This document shows positions 4,012-15,014 of a DNA stretch of 64,000 nt, piece by piece (position 1 is the stretch's first letter; each line of letters opens with the position of its first letter). The stretch is from a virus. Its lineage: Duplodnaviria; Heunggongvirae; Uroviricota; Caudoviricetes. Position numbers and translations under genes: made by a program. The stretch lies in IMG/VR virus record IMGVR_UViG_647533160_000003; one strand, written 5' to 3'. The notes under the pieces are model-generated. The model saw only the letters and a program-made list of their open reading frames with translations. It searched no databases and had not been told where the DNA came from.

Positions 4012-7000
4012 ATGACCCAAGTCGCGAAGAAAATTCTGGTGACGTGCGCGCTGCCGTACGCTAACGGCTCAATCCACCTCGGCCATATGCTGGAGCACAT
4101 CCAGGCTGATGTCTGGGTTCGTTACCAGCGAATGCGCGGCCACGAGGTTAATTTCATCTGTGCCGACGATGCCCACGGTACGCCGATCATGCTGAAAGCA
4201 CAGCAGCTTGGTATCACACCGGAGCAGATGATTGGCGAAATGAGTCAGGAACACCAGACTGATTTCGCAGGCTTTAACATCAGCTATGACAACTATCACT
4301 CGACGCACAGCGAAGAGAACCGCCAGCTGTCTGAGCTTATCTATACTCGCCTGAAAGAGAACGGTTTTATTAAAAACCGCACCATCTCTCAGCTGTACGA
4401 TCCGGAAAAAGGCATGTTCCTGCCGGATCGTTTTGTAAAAGGCACCTGCCCGAAATGTAAAGCACCTGATCAATATGGCGATAACTGTGAAGTCTGCGGC
4501 GCAACATATAGCCCGACTGAATTGATCGAACCGAAATCGGTGGTTTCTGGCGCTACGCCGGTAATGCGTGATTCTGAACACTTCTTCTTTGATCTGCCCT
4601 CTTTCAGCGAAATGTTGCAGGCATGGACCCGCAGCGGCGCGTTGCAGGAGCAGGTGGCAAACAAAATGCAGGAGTGGTTTGAATCTGGTCTGCAACAGTG
4701 GGATATCTCCCGCGACGCACCTTACTTCGGTTTTGAAATTCCGAACGCGCCGGGTAAATATTTCTACGTCTGGCTGGACGCACCGATTGGCTATATGGGC
4801 TCTTTCAAGAATCTGTGTGATAAGCGCGGCGACAGCGTAAGCTTCGATGAATACTGGAAGAAAGATTCCACCGCCGAGCTGTATCACTTCATCGGTAAAG
4901 ATATCGTTTACTTCCACAGCCTGTTCTGGCCAGCAATGCTGGAAGGCAGCAACTTCCGCAAGCCGACCAACCTGTTTGTTCACGGCTATGTGACAGTGAA
5001 CGGCGCGAAGATGTCCAAGTCTCGCGGCACCTTTATTAAAGCCAGCACCTGGCTGAATCATTTTGACGCCGACAGCCTGCGCTACTACTACACCGCCAAA
5101 CTGTCTTCGCGCATTGATGATATCGATCTCAACCTGGAGGATTTCGTTCAGCGCGTGAATGCCGATATTGTTAACAAAGTGGTTAACCTGGCCTCCCGTA
5201 ATGCAGGCTTTATCAACAAGCGTTTTGACGGCGTGCTGGCAAGCGAACTGGCTGACCCGCAACTGTACAAAACCTTTACTGATGCCGCTGAAGTGATTGG
5301 CGAAGCATGGGAAAGCCGCGAATTTGGTAAAGCTATCCGTGAAATCATGGCATTGGCTGACCTGGCTAACCGCTATGTCGATGAACAGGCTCCGTGGGTG
5401 GTGGCGAAGCAGGAAGGTCGCGATGCAGATCTGCAGGCGATTTGCTCTATGGGCATTAACCTGTTCCGCGTGCTGATGACGTACCTGAAACCGGTACTGC
5501 CAAAACTGACTGAACGTGCAGAGGCATTCCTCAATACGGAACTGACCTGGGATGGTATCCAGCAACCGCTGTTGGGCCATAAAGTGAATCCGTTCAAAGC
5601 TCTGTATAACCGTATCGATATGAAGCAGGTTGAAGCACTGGTGGAAGCGTCTAAAGAAGAAGTCAAAGCCGCTGCCGCACCGGTAACTGGCCCGCTGGCA
5701 GACGATCCGATTCAGGAAACCATCACCTTTGACGACTTCGCCAAAGTTGACCTGCGCGTGGCACTGATTGAAAACGCGGAGTTTGTCGAAGGNNNNNNNN
5801 NNNNNNNNNNNNNNNNNNNNNNNNNNNNNNNNNNNNNNNNNNNNNNNNNNNNNNNNNNNNNNNNNNNNNNNNNNNNNNNNNNNNNNNNNNNNNNNNNNNN
5901 NNNNNNNNNNNNNNNNNNNNNNNNNNNNNNNNNNNNNNNNNNNNNNNNNNNNNNNNNNNNNNNNNNNNNNNNNNNNNNNNNNNNNNNNNNNNNNNNNNNN
6001 NNNNNNNNNNNNNNNNNNNNNNNNNNNNNNNNNNNNNNNNNNNNNNNNNNNNNNNNNNNNNNNNNNNNNNNNNNNNNNNNNNNNNNNNNNNNNNNNNNNN
6101 NNNNNNNNNNNNNNNNNNNNNNNNNNNNNNNNNNNNNNNNNNNNNNNNNNNNNNNNNNNNNNNNNNNNNNNNNNNNNNNNNNNNNNNNNNNNNNNNNNNN
6201 NNNNNNNNNNNNNNNNNNNNNNNNNNNNNNNNNNNNNNNNNNNNNNNNNNNNNNNNNNNNNNNNNNNNNNNNNNNNNNNNNNNNNNNNNNNNNNNNNNNN
6301 NNNNNNNNNNNNNNNNNNNNNNNNNNNNNNNNNNNNNNNNNNNNNNNNNNNNNNNNNNNNNNNNNNNNNNNNNNNNNNNNNNNNNNNNNNNNNNNNNNNN
6401 NNNNNNNNNNNNNNNNNNNNNNNNNNNNNNNNNNNNNNNNNNNNNNNNNNNNNNNNNNNNNNNNNNNNNNNNNNNNNNNNNNNNNNNNNNNNNNNNNNNN
6501 NNNNNNNNNNNNNNNNNNNNNNNNNNNNNNNNNNNNNNNNNNNNNNNNNNNNNNNNNNNNNNNNNNNNNNNNNNNNNNNNNNNNNNNNNNNNNNNNNNNN
6601 NNNNNNNNNNNNNNNNNNNNNNNNNNNNNNNNNNNNNNNNNNNNNNNNNNNNNNNNNNNNNNNNNNNNNNNNNNNNNNNNNNNNNNNNNNNNNNNNNNNN
6701 NNNGCTGTTGGGCCATAAAAGTGAATCCGTTCAAAGCTCTGTATAACCGTATCGATATGAAGCAGGTTGAAGCACTGGTGGAAGCGTCTAAAGAAGAAGT
6801 CAAAGCCGCTGCCGCACCGGTAACTGGCCCGCTGGCAGACGATCCGATTCAGGAAACCATCACCTTTGACGACTTCGCCAAAGTTGACCTGCGCGTGGCA
6901 CTGATTGAAAACGCGGAGTTTGTCGAAGGTTCTGACAAACTGCTGCGCCTGACACTGGATCTCGGCGGAGAAAAACGTAATGTCTTCTCAGGCATTCGTT

Positions 7001-10323: not shown

Positions 10324-10719
10324 ATGACCGTTAAACGCGAAAAACTGACAGTTGATGTTTACTATGCCTCTGAAACCGCCGAAGGTAAGAATGTGGCAAA
10401 AATCACCGTTGTTACGTACAACACCGAAACTGGTGCCGAAGTCCAGGCCAGTACGATCGTGCGTAAAGGTGATGCCTCCGGCGGCGAGTACGCGACTCAA
10501 TACCAGTCTATTTTCGATGCAACTGACCCGCTGCTGCTGAAAATCGAGAACTACTTCCGCCAGGTTGATGAAGAGGTGTTTGAAACCATGATGAATATGG
10601 TTAACACCGTATTCGCCTCCAGCCTGAATACCAACACTACCTGGATTGGTCAGTACGGCCTGCGCATTACCTCCGGCATTCCTGCTGACACCTTAATTCC
10701 TGAAAGCGTATTCGCTTAA
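10324..10719 (+). CDS. Hypothetical protein
   Basis: ATG 10324 with GGAGAG RBS; 131-aa ORF. Confidence 0.55.
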   Translation: MTVKREKLTVDVYYASETAEGKNVAKITVVTYNTETGAEVQASTIVRKGDASGGEYATQYQSIFDATDPLLLKIENYFRQVDEEVFETMMNMVNTVFASSLNTNTTWIGQYGLRITSGIPADTLIPESVFA

Positions 10720-10814
10720 TCCTCTTTGAATGGCGCGTAAACCGCGCCATTTCCTATGCCCGATAACAATTTGTTTTCTGCCTTTATCTCGCTGCGATAA
10801 TTACACCAACAAGA

Positions 10815-10827
10815 AAACAACATGTTT
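10815..10827. promoter_or_regulatory. 13-bp palindrome family (site 5)
   Basis: aaacaacatgttt; preceded by cgataattacaccaacaag. Confidence 0.55.
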
Positions 10828-10840
10828 ACGCAGTGAGGAT

Positions 10841-11128
10841 ATGCTCATGACTGATTTCACCATTACCCCTAAAGCACAAAATGTATTTCTTGAATCATGG
10901 CTGGACTTGCCGGAAACAGAACAGCAAGAAATGGATCATGTGGATTATGACGAGCAGGTAAGCACGCGATTCTTCCACTTTGAGGGATGCGTTTACGACA
11001 TTGCCGACTTCATGCGAGATGACCGCTTCCCTGAATGGCACGCAAGCTATCCACTAAACGCCTTCGCCATGCTGATGATCCGTGTGGATGATTCAGGGGA
11101 TACCATCGACATCGGTCTGCTCCACTGA
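10841..11128 (+). CDS. Hypothetical acidic protein
   Basis: ATG shortly after palindrome 10815-10827; ORF in-frame with track ORF 10730. Confidence 0.5.
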   Translation: MLMTDFTITPKAQNVFLESWLDLPETEQQEMDHVDYDEQVSTRFFHFEGCVYDIADFMRDDRFPEWHASYPLNAFAMLMIRVDDSGDTIDIGLLH

Positions 11129-11299
11129 AGAATAAGGTCACCAATGCTGGTGGCCTTAAATGACCATCCTGTTTCCCTCAGGCTAAAAACACCAACCTCT
11201 TACCTCCAGGCAACCGACAAACCCACCTGTTCCCGTCCGGCCACCGCAACTTTCCACTTTGACGCCTTATTCGTACAACGATAATTAACACCAACAAGA

Positions 11300-11312
11300 A
11301 AACAATTTGTTA
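11300..11312. promoter_or_regulatory. 13-bp palindrome family (site 6)
   Basis: aaacaatttgtta; preceded by cgataattaacaccaacaag. Confidence 0.55.
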
Positions 11313-11332
11313 TTTACGATAAGGAATTAATC

Positions 11333-11815
11333 ATGAATTTTATCGCTACTGTAAACGCACCCGCACATGGCAATATCGCTGTAACGTTCTCTGACATTGA
11401 AAAACGAGTACTTGGTGCATGGCGCGACAATGAGACGGTAGAACTGTCAGCACAAGAAAAATGCATTATTGCACGCGACATCATTGGCAATCGTCGTTAC
11501 TCGCGGGTATTTGAGAAAGCGTATGTGGTAAATTCTGGATTCGGAACGTTCGTCTTTCCGGTGCGCTCCGGGCGATTCTGCCAGTCCAAGCTGATTGAGT
11601 TCGCTACGCAGATTTCTGTCTGGATTAAAACTCAATCGTCGTTCAAATTTTCCGACGATGAAGCAGTATCGCAGGGGATGCGGATCGCCAACAATGCAAT
11701 TAAATGCAAAAACATTACGTATACCGCTGGCGTTGATACATGGAAACTGTTTTGCGCTAACTTTATGCTGAATGTATACGCAAGCAACCGCATCCACATC
11801 CTTGATGGCGTGTAA
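11333..11815 (+). CDS. Hypothetical protein (160 aa)
   Basis: ATG 21 nt after palindrome 11300-11312, AAGGA RBS; followed by hairpin 11825-11846. Confidence 0.55.
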   Translation: MNFIATVNAPAHGNIAVTFSDIEKRVLGAWRDNETVELSAQEKCIIARDIIGNRRYSRVFEKAYVVNSGFGTFVFPVRSGRFCQSKLIEFATQISVWIKTQSSFKFSDDEAVSQGMRIANNAIKCKNITYTAGVDTWKLFCANFMLNVYASNRIHILDGV

Positions 11816-11824
11816 CTGAGAAGA

Positions 11825-11846
11825 GGGCCAGAAACGGCCCTTTCTC
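11825..11846 (+). terminator. Terminator hairpin after early gene cluster
   Basis: gggccagaaacggccc + TTTCTCT. Confidence 0.55.
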
Positions 11847-11869
11847 TATAGCCACCAGCTGCCGCAGGG

Positions 11870-11950
11870 AAATTTTCAGAAACGGCGAGGAACGTATTCA
11901 TGAGCCGACGGGAAACGGCTAGGATTTTTTCGGGAAACGGCTACATTTGC
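11870..11950. repeat. Second cluster of GGGAAACGGCT iteron-like repeats
   Basis: cagaaacggcgagg, gggaaacggctagg, gggaaacggctaca. Confidence 0.6.
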
Positions 11951-12067
11951 CTTTATGTAGAAAAACATCGGGAAGTTGGTTGAATCCAACCAGCGGTTGT
12001 CGGACAGGCGAGCGGGGAAATCATGATGACTTTCGTCGCCTGAGACATCCAGATTTCTTTCGTAGCG

Positions 12068-12109
12068 TAATCACATACGTGATTAAGTGGTGTGATTATG
12101 TGAAAAATC
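12068..12109. promoter_or_regulatory. Pair of inverted repeats with GTGATT/AATCAC half-sites (operator-like)
   Basis: aatcacatacgtgatt and gtgattatgtgaaaaatcac. Confidence 0.45.
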
Positions 12110-12429
12110 ACGCGCACATAATACGCGAGCGGATACGGAACAAAACAAAATGCCGATCCGCGCCGACAAATAAACGCGGATCACATAGCAAGACTAAAAG
12201 CCAATGATTAACTATGCGCTATAGCGCAATATAACGCGTTTTAAGCGCGTTAATGCGTTAAGTAATGGGTATGTACTGGCAAGGATATAAAAGCGCGTCT
12301 ATGGCGTTATTTTGGCGCTTATTGTTATGTTGTTGGAGTGAGTTAAAGACAATAAAAAACGCGCCAATGATGGCGCGTTATGGTGGAAGTATTGGAAACG
12401 AAAAAAGCGCCCATAGTGGGCGCTCGATT

Positions 12430-12660
12430 TTATTTATGTAAACTGATTTCAAATCCCATTTCTACAAACGCTTTTAACATTAAAAAAATATCAGCGTCGT
12501 TCACGTCTGCTTTTTTTCGCTCCTGGTCGCTCAATAAGTCAATTTTGCGCGTCGTTTCATCTATAAGCTCGACCGCGCGCCCAGCGTAACCAGCGATCCC
12601 AGCGATGCGATTAACATAATATTCATTATGGACGTTAACGCCAGCGATAAGAACAAACAT
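12430..12660 (-). CDS. Hypothetical small protein (76 aa)
   Basis: Minus-strand ORF in AT-rich cassette; flanked by repeated hairpin. Confidence 0.4.
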   Translation of the reverse strand: MFVLIAGVNVHNEYYVNRIAGIAGYAGRAVELIDETTRKIDLLSDQERKKADVNDADIFLMLKAFVEMGFEISLHK

Positions 12661-12681
12661 GATTAAGCTCCTTAAAAAAAA

Positions 12682-12930
12682 TTAAATAGAATTTTGAAGT
12701 TTTCCGATTAATGCGCTTAAACGTAAGTATTCACGTTTGCGCTTGCAATCTCGCTTGCTGTTAAGCAAATCAGAAAACGTAAAATTTAATTGGTCGCGTT
12801 GCGCGATCAAATCATCGATTAATTCCAGTTTATAAGCGCGATACTTTGCGCGATATTCTGCGCGGATCTTGTCATAGCTGACCATCTTTAAAGCTCCTTT
12901 AAAGCGCCCACTATGGGCGCTTAATTCCAT
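12682..12930 (-). CDS. Hypothetical small protein (82 aa), basic, possibly nucleic-acid binding
   Basis: Minus-strand ORF; Lys/Arg-rich; flanked by repeated hairpins. Confidence 0.4.
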   Translation of the reverse strand: MELSAHSGRFKGALKMVSYDKIRAEYRAKYRAYKLELIDDLIAQRDQLNFTFSDLLNSKRDCKRKREYLRLSALIGKLQNSI

Positions 12931-12933
12931 TAA

Positions 12934-13584
12934 TTACGCTTTGAAAGCGTCAGCTAGATAATTGTAGAAATCATTTTTAATGAAGCGATATTGCTGAGTA
13001 CCAGCTTTTGCGCTCCCAGCTCCTTTGACTTTCTCAACAAGTCCGAGACGTTCGCAAAGATTGATCAACTGGTTGGCTTGAGTATAGCCAGCGTCCAATT
13101 TAATTTCGCACGCTTTTTTAGCTTCATTCATTAAATCGAAAACAGCGCCATTAGTGAACGTGTCGATCTCGTCGTTAATCATATCGATTAAAGCGAATAC
13201 ACGAGATCCTGACATATCAGCGACGGAATAAACGCATTTACCAGCTTTAATGGATTTAACCAGATAAACCAGTTTTTCCAGTGAATAACTATTAGTCATT
13301 GCATCACGGAAAAATACTTCTGGCGCTTGTTTGCTTGCTTTAATCGCATAGTAGAAAACAGAGCATAATTTTTCGTCTTCTACTGCGTTTACGACGTTGT
13401 TGATGAAGTAAGCAAGTTTAGTGGTCGCAGCTTGCATATTTGCTTTGTCTGCTTTAGTGTGCGTACCATTTTTATAATGTTCGTTATATGTTTGAGTTGC
13501 CAGATCTGCTTTTTCGCGCAGCTCGTCGGATACAATGGAAGCAGCTTCAATGATGGTTTTTTTAGAAATGATAATGTTAGCCAT
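12934..13584 (-). CDS. Hypothetical protein (216 aa)
   Basis: Minus-strand ORF with AT-rich upstream region 13590-13840. Confidence 0.5.
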   Translation of the reverse strand: MANIIISKKTIIEAASIVSDELREKADLATQTYNEHYKNGTHTKADKANMQAATTKLAYFINNVVNAVEDEKLCSVFYYAIKASKQAPEVFFRDAMTNSYSLEKLVYLVKSIKAGKCVYSVADMSGSRVFALIDMINDEIDTFTNGAVFDLMNEAKKACEIKLDAGYTQANQLINLCERLGLVEKVKGAGSAKAGTQQYRFIKNDFYNYLADAFKA

Positions 13585-13846
13585 GATTTTATTCCTTAGT
13601 ATAAATATTAAAATTTAACTCAAGAAAGAAAGTGTTTTGCATTCGTTCCTGATGCGTTCAATTATCGATGCGCGAAAAAAGATTGCAAGTGTTTTTTTAA
13701 AATTTTTTGCAGGGATGAAAGTCCTAGAAATAAAAGCTAGATCGTCGAAGGTGTTCCCTAAATAAATAATAAATTCCGGCTTTTGACCTTATATATTTAT
13801 ACGGGGGAGAATTGAATGAGTGTTAAACGAATGGCATGTAAAATAA

Positions 13847-13866
13847 TAACCGGACTTAGCCGGTTA
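13847..13866 (-). terminator. Terminator hairpin for minus-strand operon 13882-15503
   Basis: taaccggacttagccggtta; T-run on minus strand. Confidence 0.55.
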
Positions 13867-13881
13867 TTACCCTTATAGAAA

Positions 13882-14403
13882 TTAAAACGGAAGGATTCGT
13901 TCAACCCAATCGAAGAAAATAAGTATTTTTCTACCGTCTTCCAACTTAAGTGTGACTAGACAGGCGTCAACGCCATCTGACTTTCCCTCAATTTCGCGAC
14001 CGTCTGCCATGTAGACCCTTATAGATTTGCCGTTTTGGTAAGCCTGACGACATATCTTAAAAAAGTCACGACGTGATGGCTGATTAACCATCTGTTCATT
14101 GTTTAGCGTTAGTCGACCTGTGAATGAAGTGTCAACCTCTTCTATGCCCGACTCAATTGTGCTAATGCGCTCAAGAGGGAGCCTTATACGATTTGTGTTG
14201 CTAAGCGGATCTGGTGTGAGGTTCAGCTTATTTCTTGCGCTCAATAGCCCGTAGACATACATGCAAAACACTTGGCCGTCTTCGAGAGTGACTCTTACAG
14301 GAAATTGAGCACTCCGCCAGAAGAGCAAGGTGCGTTCAGCATGTTCGTAGTTTCGCGGCCATACTTCAGCCGGTATGCCGTAGGTGATGTCCAATGTTCT
14401 CAT
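13882..14403 (-). CDS. Hypothetical protein (173 aa)
   Basis: Minus-strand ORF overlapping upstream gene by 4 nt (operon). Confidence 0.5.
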   Translation of the reverse strand: MRTLDITYGIPAEVWPRNYEHAERTLLFWRSAQFPVRVTLEDGQVFCMYVYGLLSARNKLNLTPDPLSNTNRIRLPLERISTIESGIEEVDTSFTGRLTLNNEQMVNQPSRRDFFKICRQAYQNGKSIRVYMADGREIEGKSDGVDACLVTLKLEDGRKILIFFDWVERILPF

Positions 14404-15014
14404 TCTGATACTCTTAGAGGTGTTTTCAGCAATCCAAATTTAAATTCTTTGTTACCAACGACCAAGAAGGGGACTTCAACATAGATTTTTTTATCGACGG
14501 ATTTAGAGTTCGCTGTTTTCTTGATGTCGCGAACGATACGTTTTGTTGTGTTTTCATCAATAAACAATACCTTCCCACTGGTATTCCCTTCAGTCTTAGC
14601 ATAAGTGACAATAGGTTCTTCATTGCCAACTCTGATGTTCACTTGGCAACCCGTTGTAGCCATTTCATCACAATAGAGTGTACCGTCTTGAATTTCTAAA
14701 ACAATTCCAGATGGCTTCATGGCCTCGTTAGAGCTTACATTAGCGTTTTCTGGTACTGCGGTCCCGTTAATTTGCAACCGTAATCTTTCTTTTCCTGCAT
14801 GAAGTATTGTTTCTTCTGCGTTATCTGAGAATCTATACCAGACTGGTTGAATCAGACCTCGTGATTTGTATTTTAGTACGTCTTCAGAAGTATACATGCT
14901 GTACGTTTTTTGCATGTCAGAGACGAAATCTGATAATGCGTTGGCGGAAAACGCCGGGAGGCATATACAAGCAAGGAGTAACGAAAGTTTCATTTTCATA
15001 TCATGATAAACCAA
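14400..15014 (-). CDS. Secreted/periplasmic hypothetical protein with signal peptide (probable start at 14999, MKMKLSLLLACICLPAFSANA)
   Basis: N-terminal hydrophobic signal sequence with A-x-A cleavage-like site; tightly packed in 3-gene operon. Confidence 0.55.
   Translation of the reverse strand: MVYHDMKMKLSLLLACICLPAFSANALSDFVSDMQKTYSMYTSEDVLKYKSRGLIQPVWYRFSDNAEETILHAGKERLRLQINGTAVPENANVSSNEAMKPSGIVLEIQDGTLYCDEMATTGCQVNIRVGNEEPIVTYAKTEGNTSGKVLFIDENTTKRIVRDIKKTANSKSVDKKIYVEVPFLVVGNKEFKFGLLKTPLRVSE

Follow-up and report, generated by a model that had tools for sequence, protein, structure and literature searches.

Duplicated terminator-type hairpin at the 3' end of a small-gene operon in an SSU5-like phage-plasmid: a probable homology joint for cassette shuffling

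Results

The 64,000-nt stretch of DNA analysed here, referred to as the window (IMG/VR virus record IMGVR_UViG_647533160_000003, Caudoviricetes), carries two copies of a short, perfect hairpin within and behind a leftward unit of small genes, and the origin and role of this hairpin pair are the subject of the present study. The region matches 770 PLSDB plasmids, mostly non-mobilizable, approximately 110 kb in size and distributed over Escherichia, Klebsiella, Enterobacter, Yersinia and Salmonella, and it also matches the phages SSU5 (80% identity), Cyrano, PhiR41_1 and others. Based on these plasmid and phage matches, the window is by its sequence part of an E. coli-type SSU5-like phage-plasmid. 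On the minus strand, an FljA-like repressor gene is followed by a gap of 297 nt and then by the genes p216, g67 and g76a (Table 1); downstream of g76a lie approximately 600 nt of non-coding DNA and a convergent plus-strand gene that ends at position 11815. In other relatives, a paralogue of g76a, termed g75b, stands in for g76a or is located beside it. The sole promoter-like match upstream of p216 (13688-13661) falls within the 297-nt gap, and promoter-like sites are fewer than in shuffled sequences.

Table 1. Genes and sequence features at the hairpin locus, with positions in the window.
Feature	Position	Strand	Description
T2, second intrinsic terminator (predicted)	12348-12379 (stem 12358-12379)	-	AACGCGCCA-UCAU-UGGCGCGUU followed by UUUUAUUGUC; -15.7 kcal/mol, z-score -6.4
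U-tract of HP1	12395-12405	-	six-U run, UUUUUCGUUUC after the closing U; from the sequence and relatives
HP1, terminal hairpin copy	12406-12424	-	sense RNA A-GCGCCCA-CUA-UGGGCGC-U; stem extendable to 12405-12425
g76a	12430-12660	-	76 aa; phrog_1585 (PHROG match)
g67	12682-12885	-	67 aa; phrog_6145; predicted coiled-coil-like; annotated with 204 nt in relatives
Translation-initiation region of g67	12886-12902	-	Shine-Dalgarno sequence AAGGAG at 12894-12899, 8 nt upstream of ATG 12885
HP2, proximal hairpin copy	12903-12921	-	same stem as HP1; sense-RNA loop UAG, flipped relative to most relatives; -15.0 kcal/mol
p216	12934-13584	-	216 aa; phrog_1513 (PHROG match); first gene of the unit
Candidate promoter of the p216-g67-g76a unit	13661-13688	-	TTGCAA-16-GATAAT; sigma-70-like consensus match only
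FljA-like repressor gene	13882-14403	-	full-length FljA homologue; PF03614, E-value 2e-68

Read on the plus strand, the copy at the end of the unit (HP1) is AGCGCCCA-TAG-TGGGCGCT, that is AGCGCCCATAGTGGGCGCT, and the copy between p216 and g67 (HP2) is AGCGCCCA-CTA-TGGGCGCT, that is AGCGCCCACTATGGGCGCT. The 8-bp stem is a perfect palindrome, and the 3-nt loop alone distinguishes the two copies. Even with up to three mismatches allowed, they are the only two sites in the window (four strand-matches), compared to 0.02 expected from shuffled sequences; the hairpin pair is real and far above chance. RNA folding gave -15.0 to -15.5 kcal/mol for both hairpins, with z-scores between -3.3 and -4.9. The exact hairpin sequence had no occurrence in the searchable literature, and a scan of positions 10500-14500 against Rfam 15 at an E-value of <=1 revealed no meaningful match to a curated RNA family; sub-threshold hits over 12344-12428 remained at chance level (22-23 bits compared to cut-offs of 41-46).

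A preliminary description of this DNA had located HP1 exactly, but had set the second copy at 12908-12926, five nucleotides away from its true position. It had furthermore assigned 12682-12930 to a single gene, which is over-extended: the gene annotated in relatives is 204 nt long, which matches a start at ATG 12885, and a stop codon interrupts the extension in SSU5. Given this start and the p216 stop at 12934, HP2 is situated in a 48-nt intergenic gap, 17 nt before the g67 start codon, and not within a gene. That the hairpin is present in both orientations is true only in a narrow sense, namely for the 3-nt loop. Since the stem is its own reverse complement, the opposite orientation is reduced to these three nucleotides, and the flanks of the two copies align about equally well when inverted (25 nt, 92%) or direct (34 nt, 76%). 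An identical hairpin found in both orientations should thus be treated with caution and is not necessarily an inverted repeat element.

In the sense RNA, HP1 consists of GAGCGCCCA-CUA-UGGGCGCUU followed by UUUUCGUUUC, with nine pairs including six G-C, a 3-nt loop and a folding energy of -15.5 kcal/mol, and it was called terminator-like by the consensus scan. Its U-rich tract, UUUUUUCGUUUC on the sense strand, is kept in all relatives, and the TTTTTTCGTTTC of the tail is retained even where the p216 of the relative is only 48% identical. HP1 together with its U-run is, as judged by sequence, a canonical intrinsic terminator, and the predicted terminator T2 sits 26 nt further downstream. A hairpin-plus-tail discriminant of the d'Aubenton-Carafa type, the values of which are indicative only, yielded scores of +19 to +29 for HP1, +26 for T2 and -16 to -33 for HP2 of the window. 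HP2 continues on its 3' side with UUAAAGGAG and a tail, UUUAAAGGAG, that contains only three U; it has no U-tract, the terminator scan made no call, and the sense strand proceeds through UUUAAAGGAGCUUUAAAG-AUG into g67. In relatives of the SSU5 and Cyrano types, four to five U are present at this place and the score of HP2 is borderline (+7 to +8). The notion of paired terminators, as initially proposed, is therefore appropriate for the terminal copy, which with its U-run resembles a textbook intrinsic terminator, but not for the proximal copy, which lacks a U-tract and must be read through. Adjacent to HP2, a weak A/U-rich hairpin, CUUUAAAG-GAG-CUUUAAAG, is found at 12886-12904 with the g67 Shine-Dalgarno GGAG in its loop; it is a feature of the E. 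coli-type junction variant only.

The predicted terminators are part of a non-coding zone between the convergent genes (11903-12425) that is densely occupied by G+C-rich palindromes and terminator-like hairpins on both strands and harbours 10 of the 15 terminator-like matches of an 8-kb scan. A perfect 14-nt palindrome, TGCGCTATAGCGCA, is located at 12215-12228, and TAACGCG-N7-CGCGTTA at 12232-12252. Only 12262-12405 of this zone is conserved with Klebsiella and Salmonella relatives, and Rfam has no match in it.

The consensus scan detected no promoter-like site between p216 and g67, nor in the 3' part of p216. Together with the spacing of only 17 nt between HP2 and g67, this indicates that the small genes must be transcribed through HP2. 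In the RNA sequencing (RNA-seq) data of strain LF82 with Cyrano (PMC9928086, Table S1), neither p216 (CYRAN_113) nor g76a (CYRAN_112) rises above the detection floor in LB medium, and both increase in parallel, approximately 10-fold or more, in bacteria residing for 6 h inside macrophages. CYRAN_112, which follows the proximal hairpin, reaches about 0.4-3 times the level of CYRAN_113, with low counts given per gene only, and the FljA-like CYRAN_114 is expressed in all non-LB conditions. These counts, which are low and do not resolve transcript ends, are consistent with read-through of the proximal hairpin.

The ratios of nonsynonymous to synonymous substitution rates (dN/dS) are 0.065 for g67, 0.185 for g76a and 0.176 for g75b, and these low values identify all three as genes under purifying selection. 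No informative match of p216, g67 or g76a to Pfam, NCBIfam or PADLOC was obtained. Two of the PHROGs families are of unknown function and one is labelled 'MIT family metal ion transporter', a name that is implausible for a protein of 67 aa. The AlphaFold model of p216 has a predicted local distance difference test (pLDDT) score of 80. A Foldseek search with this model against the PDB gave no significant match (best E-value 0.03, template modelling score of approximately 0.3), its list being headed by winged-helix DNA-binding domains that align to about 80-110 residues in the C-terminal part, and a sequence-profile search of p216 against the PDB returned chance hits only.

For the comparison with relatives, we used 84 loci encoding p216 homologues and 104 IMG/VR stretches with the exact 17-mer GCGCCCACTATGGGCGC on either strand; approximately 175 related loci were covered overall. 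A scan of genome contigs contributed five loci, and most of the comparative power comes from IMG/VR. The preliminary description had suggested a search for the hairpin elsewhere, and this search revealed, besides the two copies in the window, copies in relatives carrying p216 at the same locus. Among the 104 stretches, 94 represent this locus, including lineages with p216 only 48-62% identical; in the other ten, which come mostly from G+C-rich contigs, related genes are absent, and chance or convergence could account for the match. Where an IMG/VR contig is >=100 kb long, the p216 locus is its only site for the 17-mer. One to three copies are present per locus, with an essentially invariant 7-bp stem core, and the perfect canonical stem was counted in 159 hairpin copies from 85 genomes, despite a synonymous divergence of the enclosed g67 with a median reaching 0.92. 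Behind the terminal copy the identity extends through TTTTTTCGTTTCCA, 31 nt in total, even in a lineage with 48% p216 identity. In the relatives, a hairpin of this family invariably comes after p216, and in nearly all of them it is a canonical copy. A few deep relatives show the symmetric variant GCGCCA-GAAA-TGGCGC, and single copies with a 4-nt loop or one bulged T were encountered.

In two distant relatives (L109 and L143), the hairpin, its tail and a spacer form tandem 44-nt repeats in two to three copies. Such terminator arrays of two to three head-to-tail units of 44-47 nt (hairpin, T-run and spacer) were observed at L109 8081-8141 and L143 1498-1602 as well as in L115, L154, L163 and L187, all of them distant relatives with p216 48-62% identical. 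An E. coli chromosome (P0166/L192; CP125919.1, 388706-396936) carries a degraded version of the locus with an FljA-like gene, a frameshifted p216 and a divergent g76; its terminal hairpin and T2 are intact and the proximal hairpin is lost. This was the single chromosomal hit for a g76 cassette in another context, and as a degraded form of the same locus it provides no evidence of mobility.

Seven architectures with one to three hairpin copies were distinguished; a hairpin copy is written as HP, or as HP(T) if it is terminal and bears the T-run: p216-HP(T) (10 loci), p216-HP-g67-HP(T) as in SSU5 (approximately 29 loci), p216-HP-g76a-HP(T) including Cyrano (approximately 14 loci), p216-HP-g75b-HP(T) of the Yersinia pestis type (5 loci), p216-HP-g67-g76a-HP(T) as in this window (18 loci), p216-HP-g67-g75b-HP(T) (3 loci), and p216-HP-g75b-HP-g76a-HP(T) (2 loci). 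Four of them coexist among backbones whose p216 genes are >=95% identical. Every copy has a left flank that is proper to the upstream gene and a right flank that is proper either to the ribosome-binding site of the downstream gene or to the T-run. The junction table contains eight such flank combinations, and the motif TTT(A/T)AAGGAGCTT is common to the cassettes 3' of a hairpin copy. The single-copy form is composed of the left flank of the proximal copy, the hairpin and the right flank of the terminal copy. Between SSU5 and its Y. pestis relative, the identity is 90-100% up to the proximal copy, drops to 24-50% between the copies, where g67 is replaced by g75b, and resumes at 100% directly after the terminal copy. 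In the sequences compared, the module boundaries, that is those of p216, g67, g76a, g75b and the operon end, fall on hairpin copies across the phage-plasmid family. Furthermore, in one genome (L038) the two copies share a rare loop, read as TCA in one and as its reverse complement TGA in the other, and this shared derived loop indicates a probable copy-to-copy conversion.

In three IMG/VR contigs (L054-L056), the small gene between the hairpins is chimeric, with a g75b-like N-terminus (MVIFISGVNI...) and a remainder that matches g76a, suggesting that recombination also takes place inside paralogous cassettes.

The sense-strand loop is CTA in 51 of the 70 proximal and 73 of the 83 terminal copies, and TAG in eight proximal and nine terminal copies; further loops related by reverse complementation are TTA/TAA, TTG/CAA and TCA/TGA. 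In the close relatives CP057127 and SSU5, both copies have the same orientation. By parsimony on a neighbour-joining tree of the adjacent gene, at least six flips occurred at each copy and at least 14 in the loop of T2 (TTGT/ACAA, ATGA/TCAT and TTGA/TCAA), adding up to at least 26 inferred flips in three adjacent terminator hairpins of approximately 85 genomes. Within its stem CGCGCCA-N4-TGGCGCG, T2 has the sense-strand loop TCAT in the window, whereas the plasmid CP057127, which is 97% identical, has ATGA. Replication template switching is known to leave such a signature, an inverted loop between perfect stem arms (PMC8794818, PMC8604942), and the loop flips observed here are most likely neutral events of this kind. 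An inversion of the whole segment of approximately 480 bp between the copies was considered and rejected, as p216 and the small genes are co-oriented in 259 pairs and opposite in none (175 loci). A site of the lambda nut/boxB type, with a loop-specific protein, was likewise discarded, because the loop varies and flips freely.

Discussion

The explanation that we consider probable is that the hairpin pair constitutes a duplicated intrinsic-terminator hairpin at the 3' end of the leftward p216-g67-g76a operon, which serves as a homology joint for cassette shuffling. According to this explanation, HP1, backed by T2, would end transcription of the operon, and HP2 would be a tail-less, leaky copy through which the RNA polymerase reads, given that the conserved genes downstream lack a separate promoter; HP2 may at most attenuate transcription or protect the 3' end of the p216 message. 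Recombination and gene conversion between the copies would explain both their origin and their continued identity. The hairpin with its T-rich tail and the Shine-Dalgarno context would together represent 17-31 nt of portable homology, on which unequal crossing-over or slippage could insert, delete, duplicate or exchange modules of promoterless small genes, either inside one phage-plasmid or between co-resident ones. The opposite loop in the window would then reflect a neutral inversion caused by intra-hairpin template switching in replication.

Several observations weigh against this explanation. The g67-g76a junction of the window has no hairpin but only a shared TTTTAAGGAGCTT context, and a mosaic breakpoint between Cyrano and the contig L003 (JAEWTL010000044.1) lies inside p216 and not at a hairpin. 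The flip counts presuppose that the hairpins share the tree of the adjacent gene, an assumption that is violated by recombination, and we infer termination and read-through from sequence rules and one low-count RNA-seq table. In addition, the 17-nt core and TTTTTTCGTTTCCA are identical even in cases in which the identity of the flanking proteins is down to 48% and 33% and the synonymous divergence is approximately 0.9. This 31-nt identity exceeds the structural need and could reflect sequence-specific recognition instead of conversion or recombination. Given that such identity across divergent lineages is not fully covered by the ordinary explanation, we leave a small share of probability to a recognition or docking role, in which hairpin, T-rich tail and Shine-Dalgarno sequence would form a selected docking site for promoterless cassettes in SSU5-like phage-plasmids. 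If this rather unlikely scenario were true, the locus would be a functional analogue of an integron that is independent of a recombinase (or dependent on p216), and the 31 nt would be held identical to stay recombination-competent or because a specific protein recognises them.

Other explanations differ in the function that they assign to the hairpins. HP2 might have an RNA-level role of its own as an intercistronic attenuator, 3' stabiliser or processing barrier that keeps the expression of p216 above that of g67 and g76a, which we regard as possible but doubtful. It is compatible with the terminator-joint explanation, and the only difference is whether HP2 owes its presence to functional selection or is left over from recombination. 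A hairpin is present 3' of p216 in essentially every relative with downstream genes, and several lineages possess a tail of four to five U with a borderline terminator score of +7 to +8; moreover, an A/U-rich stretch like that after HP2 resembles an RNase E target sequence. An RNase III site is unlikely, as a stem of 8-9 bp is too short. However, the tail of HP2 in the window contains only three U, the Cyrano RNA-seq counts, which are near the floor, do not drop consistently across the hairpin, and the position of HP2 is explained equally well by the mode of cassette insertion. Less likely still is that the 19-bp palindrome acts as a double-stranded DNA site, either operator or centromere-like, for a dimeric phage-plasmid protein, with p216 as a candidate owing to the winged-helix resemblance in the C-terminal part of its model. 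Sequence-specific recognition would explain the invariant stem, the invariant arms with a central 3 bp that vary and flip would be in line with a spacer between half-sites, p216 homologues, with as little as 48% identity, invariably accompany the hairpin, and winged-helix DNA-binding domains dominate the p216 fold-search list. Yet these fold matches are not significant (the best E-value being 0.03) and p216 belongs to no Pfam or NCBIfam family, the sites are located at the 3' ends of genes and not at promoters, the conserved T-run of the terminal copy has no role in an operator model, and T2, with a different stem, behaves alike including its loop flips. Distant copies that have symmetrically lost a C-G pair (GCGCCA/TGGCGC) agree with base pairing no less than with half-site symmetry.

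That the hairpins are the ends of a mobile mini-cassette with dedicated machinery, whether attC-like, of the IS200/IS605 or the repetitive extragenic palindrome (REP) and REP-associated tyrosine transposase (RAYT) type, or repeats of an invertible switch, is highly improbable. Promoterless small genes that are each followed by a hairpin look superficially integron-like, and copy number and gene content vary; however, the 17-mer is confined to the locus in approximately 94 of the 104 IMG/VR stretches and to it alone in the contigs of >=100 kb, the 19-nt perfect stem-loop has no GTTRRRY core, extrahelical bases or imperfect subterminal structure, the segment was never found inverted (259 versus 0), and Rfam has no match. 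The hairpin pair is not a transposable element, an integron site or an invertible switch. The term mobile mini-cassette used in the preliminary description thus applies in a passive sense, in that relatives have, lack or exchange the small genes at breakpoints that coincide with the hairpins, but not in the sense of an autonomous mobile element, given the confinement of the 17-mer to one locus of the phage-plasmid family and the constant orientation of the segment. Hardly any credence can be given to two independent terminators that resemble each other by chance and share no history. G+C-rich stem-loops are common at gene ends and the 17-mer occurs in approximately ten unrelated viral contigs, but a match of 19/19 apart from the loop, twice within 500 bp, compares with an expectation of 0.02, all relatives retain both copies at the orthologous junctions, and in one genome the two loops share a derived state. 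The shuffle expectation, the orthologous junctions and the junction table effectively refute this idea.

Among known systems, intrinsic terminators share with HP1 the G+C-rich stem of 8-9 bp, the 3-nt loop and the U-run, and in the manner of tandem terminators at convergent ends, HP1 and T2 would close the leftward operon facing the convergent rightward genes. In contrast to ordinary intrinsic terminators, a tail-less second copy is located within the operon ahead of a ribosome-binding site, and the stem sequence, beyond its pairing, is invariant where the flanking proteins fall to 48% identity. Closest in behaviour is the promoter-early stem-loop (PeSL) motif that accompanies gene cassettes in phages of the T4 type (Arbiol et al. 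2010, PMC2839356; Comeau et al. 2014, PMC4122927). In both systems, a short and conserved regulatory stem-loop motif recurs between small genes that are non-essential and of unknown function, and insertions, deletions or replacements between close relatives end in the motifs, consistent with homologous recombination between copies. However, no promoter-like match accompanies either hairpin copy, the modules here being promoterless units of hairpin and Shine-Dalgarno sequence; one to three copies occur at a single locus instead of many across hyperplastic regions; and the host is a temperate siphovirus-type phage-plasmid. Since the promoter half is absent and the element is restricted to a single locus, the hairpin pair is not a member of the PeSL class.

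As in integron cassettes, the small genes of the locus lack promoters, share one orientation, are each followed by a hairpin repeat, are expressed from an upstream promoter and form variable arrays. The attC sites of integrons are imperfect palindromes of 57-141 bp with conserved core sites and extrahelical bases, which are recombined by IntI as single-stranded DNA. In contrast, the hairpin described here is a perfect stem-loop of 19 nt at one locus, without R''-L''/L'-R' features and, by direct reading, without GTTRRRY in its flanks. Intercistronic stem-loops of the REP and bacterial interspersed mosaic element (BIME) type stabilise upstream mRNA segments, for example at malE-malF, and HP2 is similar to them, being likewise a stable intercistronic hairpin within an operon with the potential to block a 3' exonuclease and give rise to differential expression. 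REPs are imperfect palindromes of approximately 35 nt with hundreds of chromosomal copies; unlike REP/BIME, RAYT and IS200/IS605 elements, the perfect 19-nt hairpin is confined to one phage-plasmid locus, both within the 64 kb of the window and in IMG/VR contigs that are >=100 kb long. In contrast to an invertible DNA switch, only the 3-nt loop inverts and never the intervening segment. No material difference exists to loop inversion by template switching (PMC8794818, PMC8604942), in which a perfect stem is likewise kept and the loop is recurrently replaced by its reverse complement in several lineages, and the hairpin locus can be regarded as a dense natural example.

The element is ordinary in kind and a neat example. 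Phage-plasmids of the SSU5 type are widespread among Enterobacteriaceae, where they carry accessory as well as resistance genes. The locus suggests that a terminator motif of 17-31 nt may be enough as a seam for the gain, loss, duplication and swap of small genes, which would carry the PeSL concept beyond lytic phages of the T4 type into temperate phage-plasmids. Furthermore, it offers a compact natural data set on the frequency of hairpin-loop inversion that is usable, by comparative or population sequencing, to estimate template-switch rates.

Some additional observations concern the surroundings of the locus. FljA is the repressor of phase-1 flagellin, and an FljA encoded by a phage-plasmid upstream of the p216 unit could affect the flagellin expression of the host. 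The FljA-like gene has a terminator-like hairpin of its own, TAATAACCGG-N6-CCGGTTATTA, at 13844-13869. Two enterobacterial SSU5-like contigs, L003 and P0093, are filed under metagenome-assembled genomes named 'Bacillota bacterium' and 'Finegoldia magna', where they probably represent binning contamination. In the window, approximately 910 N at 5793-6703 mark masked or unsequenced DNA. The longest perfect hairpin of the window is located at 2324-2355 (AATAATGGCGTTGA-CTCC-TCAACGCCATTATT), with a 14-bp stem and a sequence unrelated to the terminator hairpin pair.

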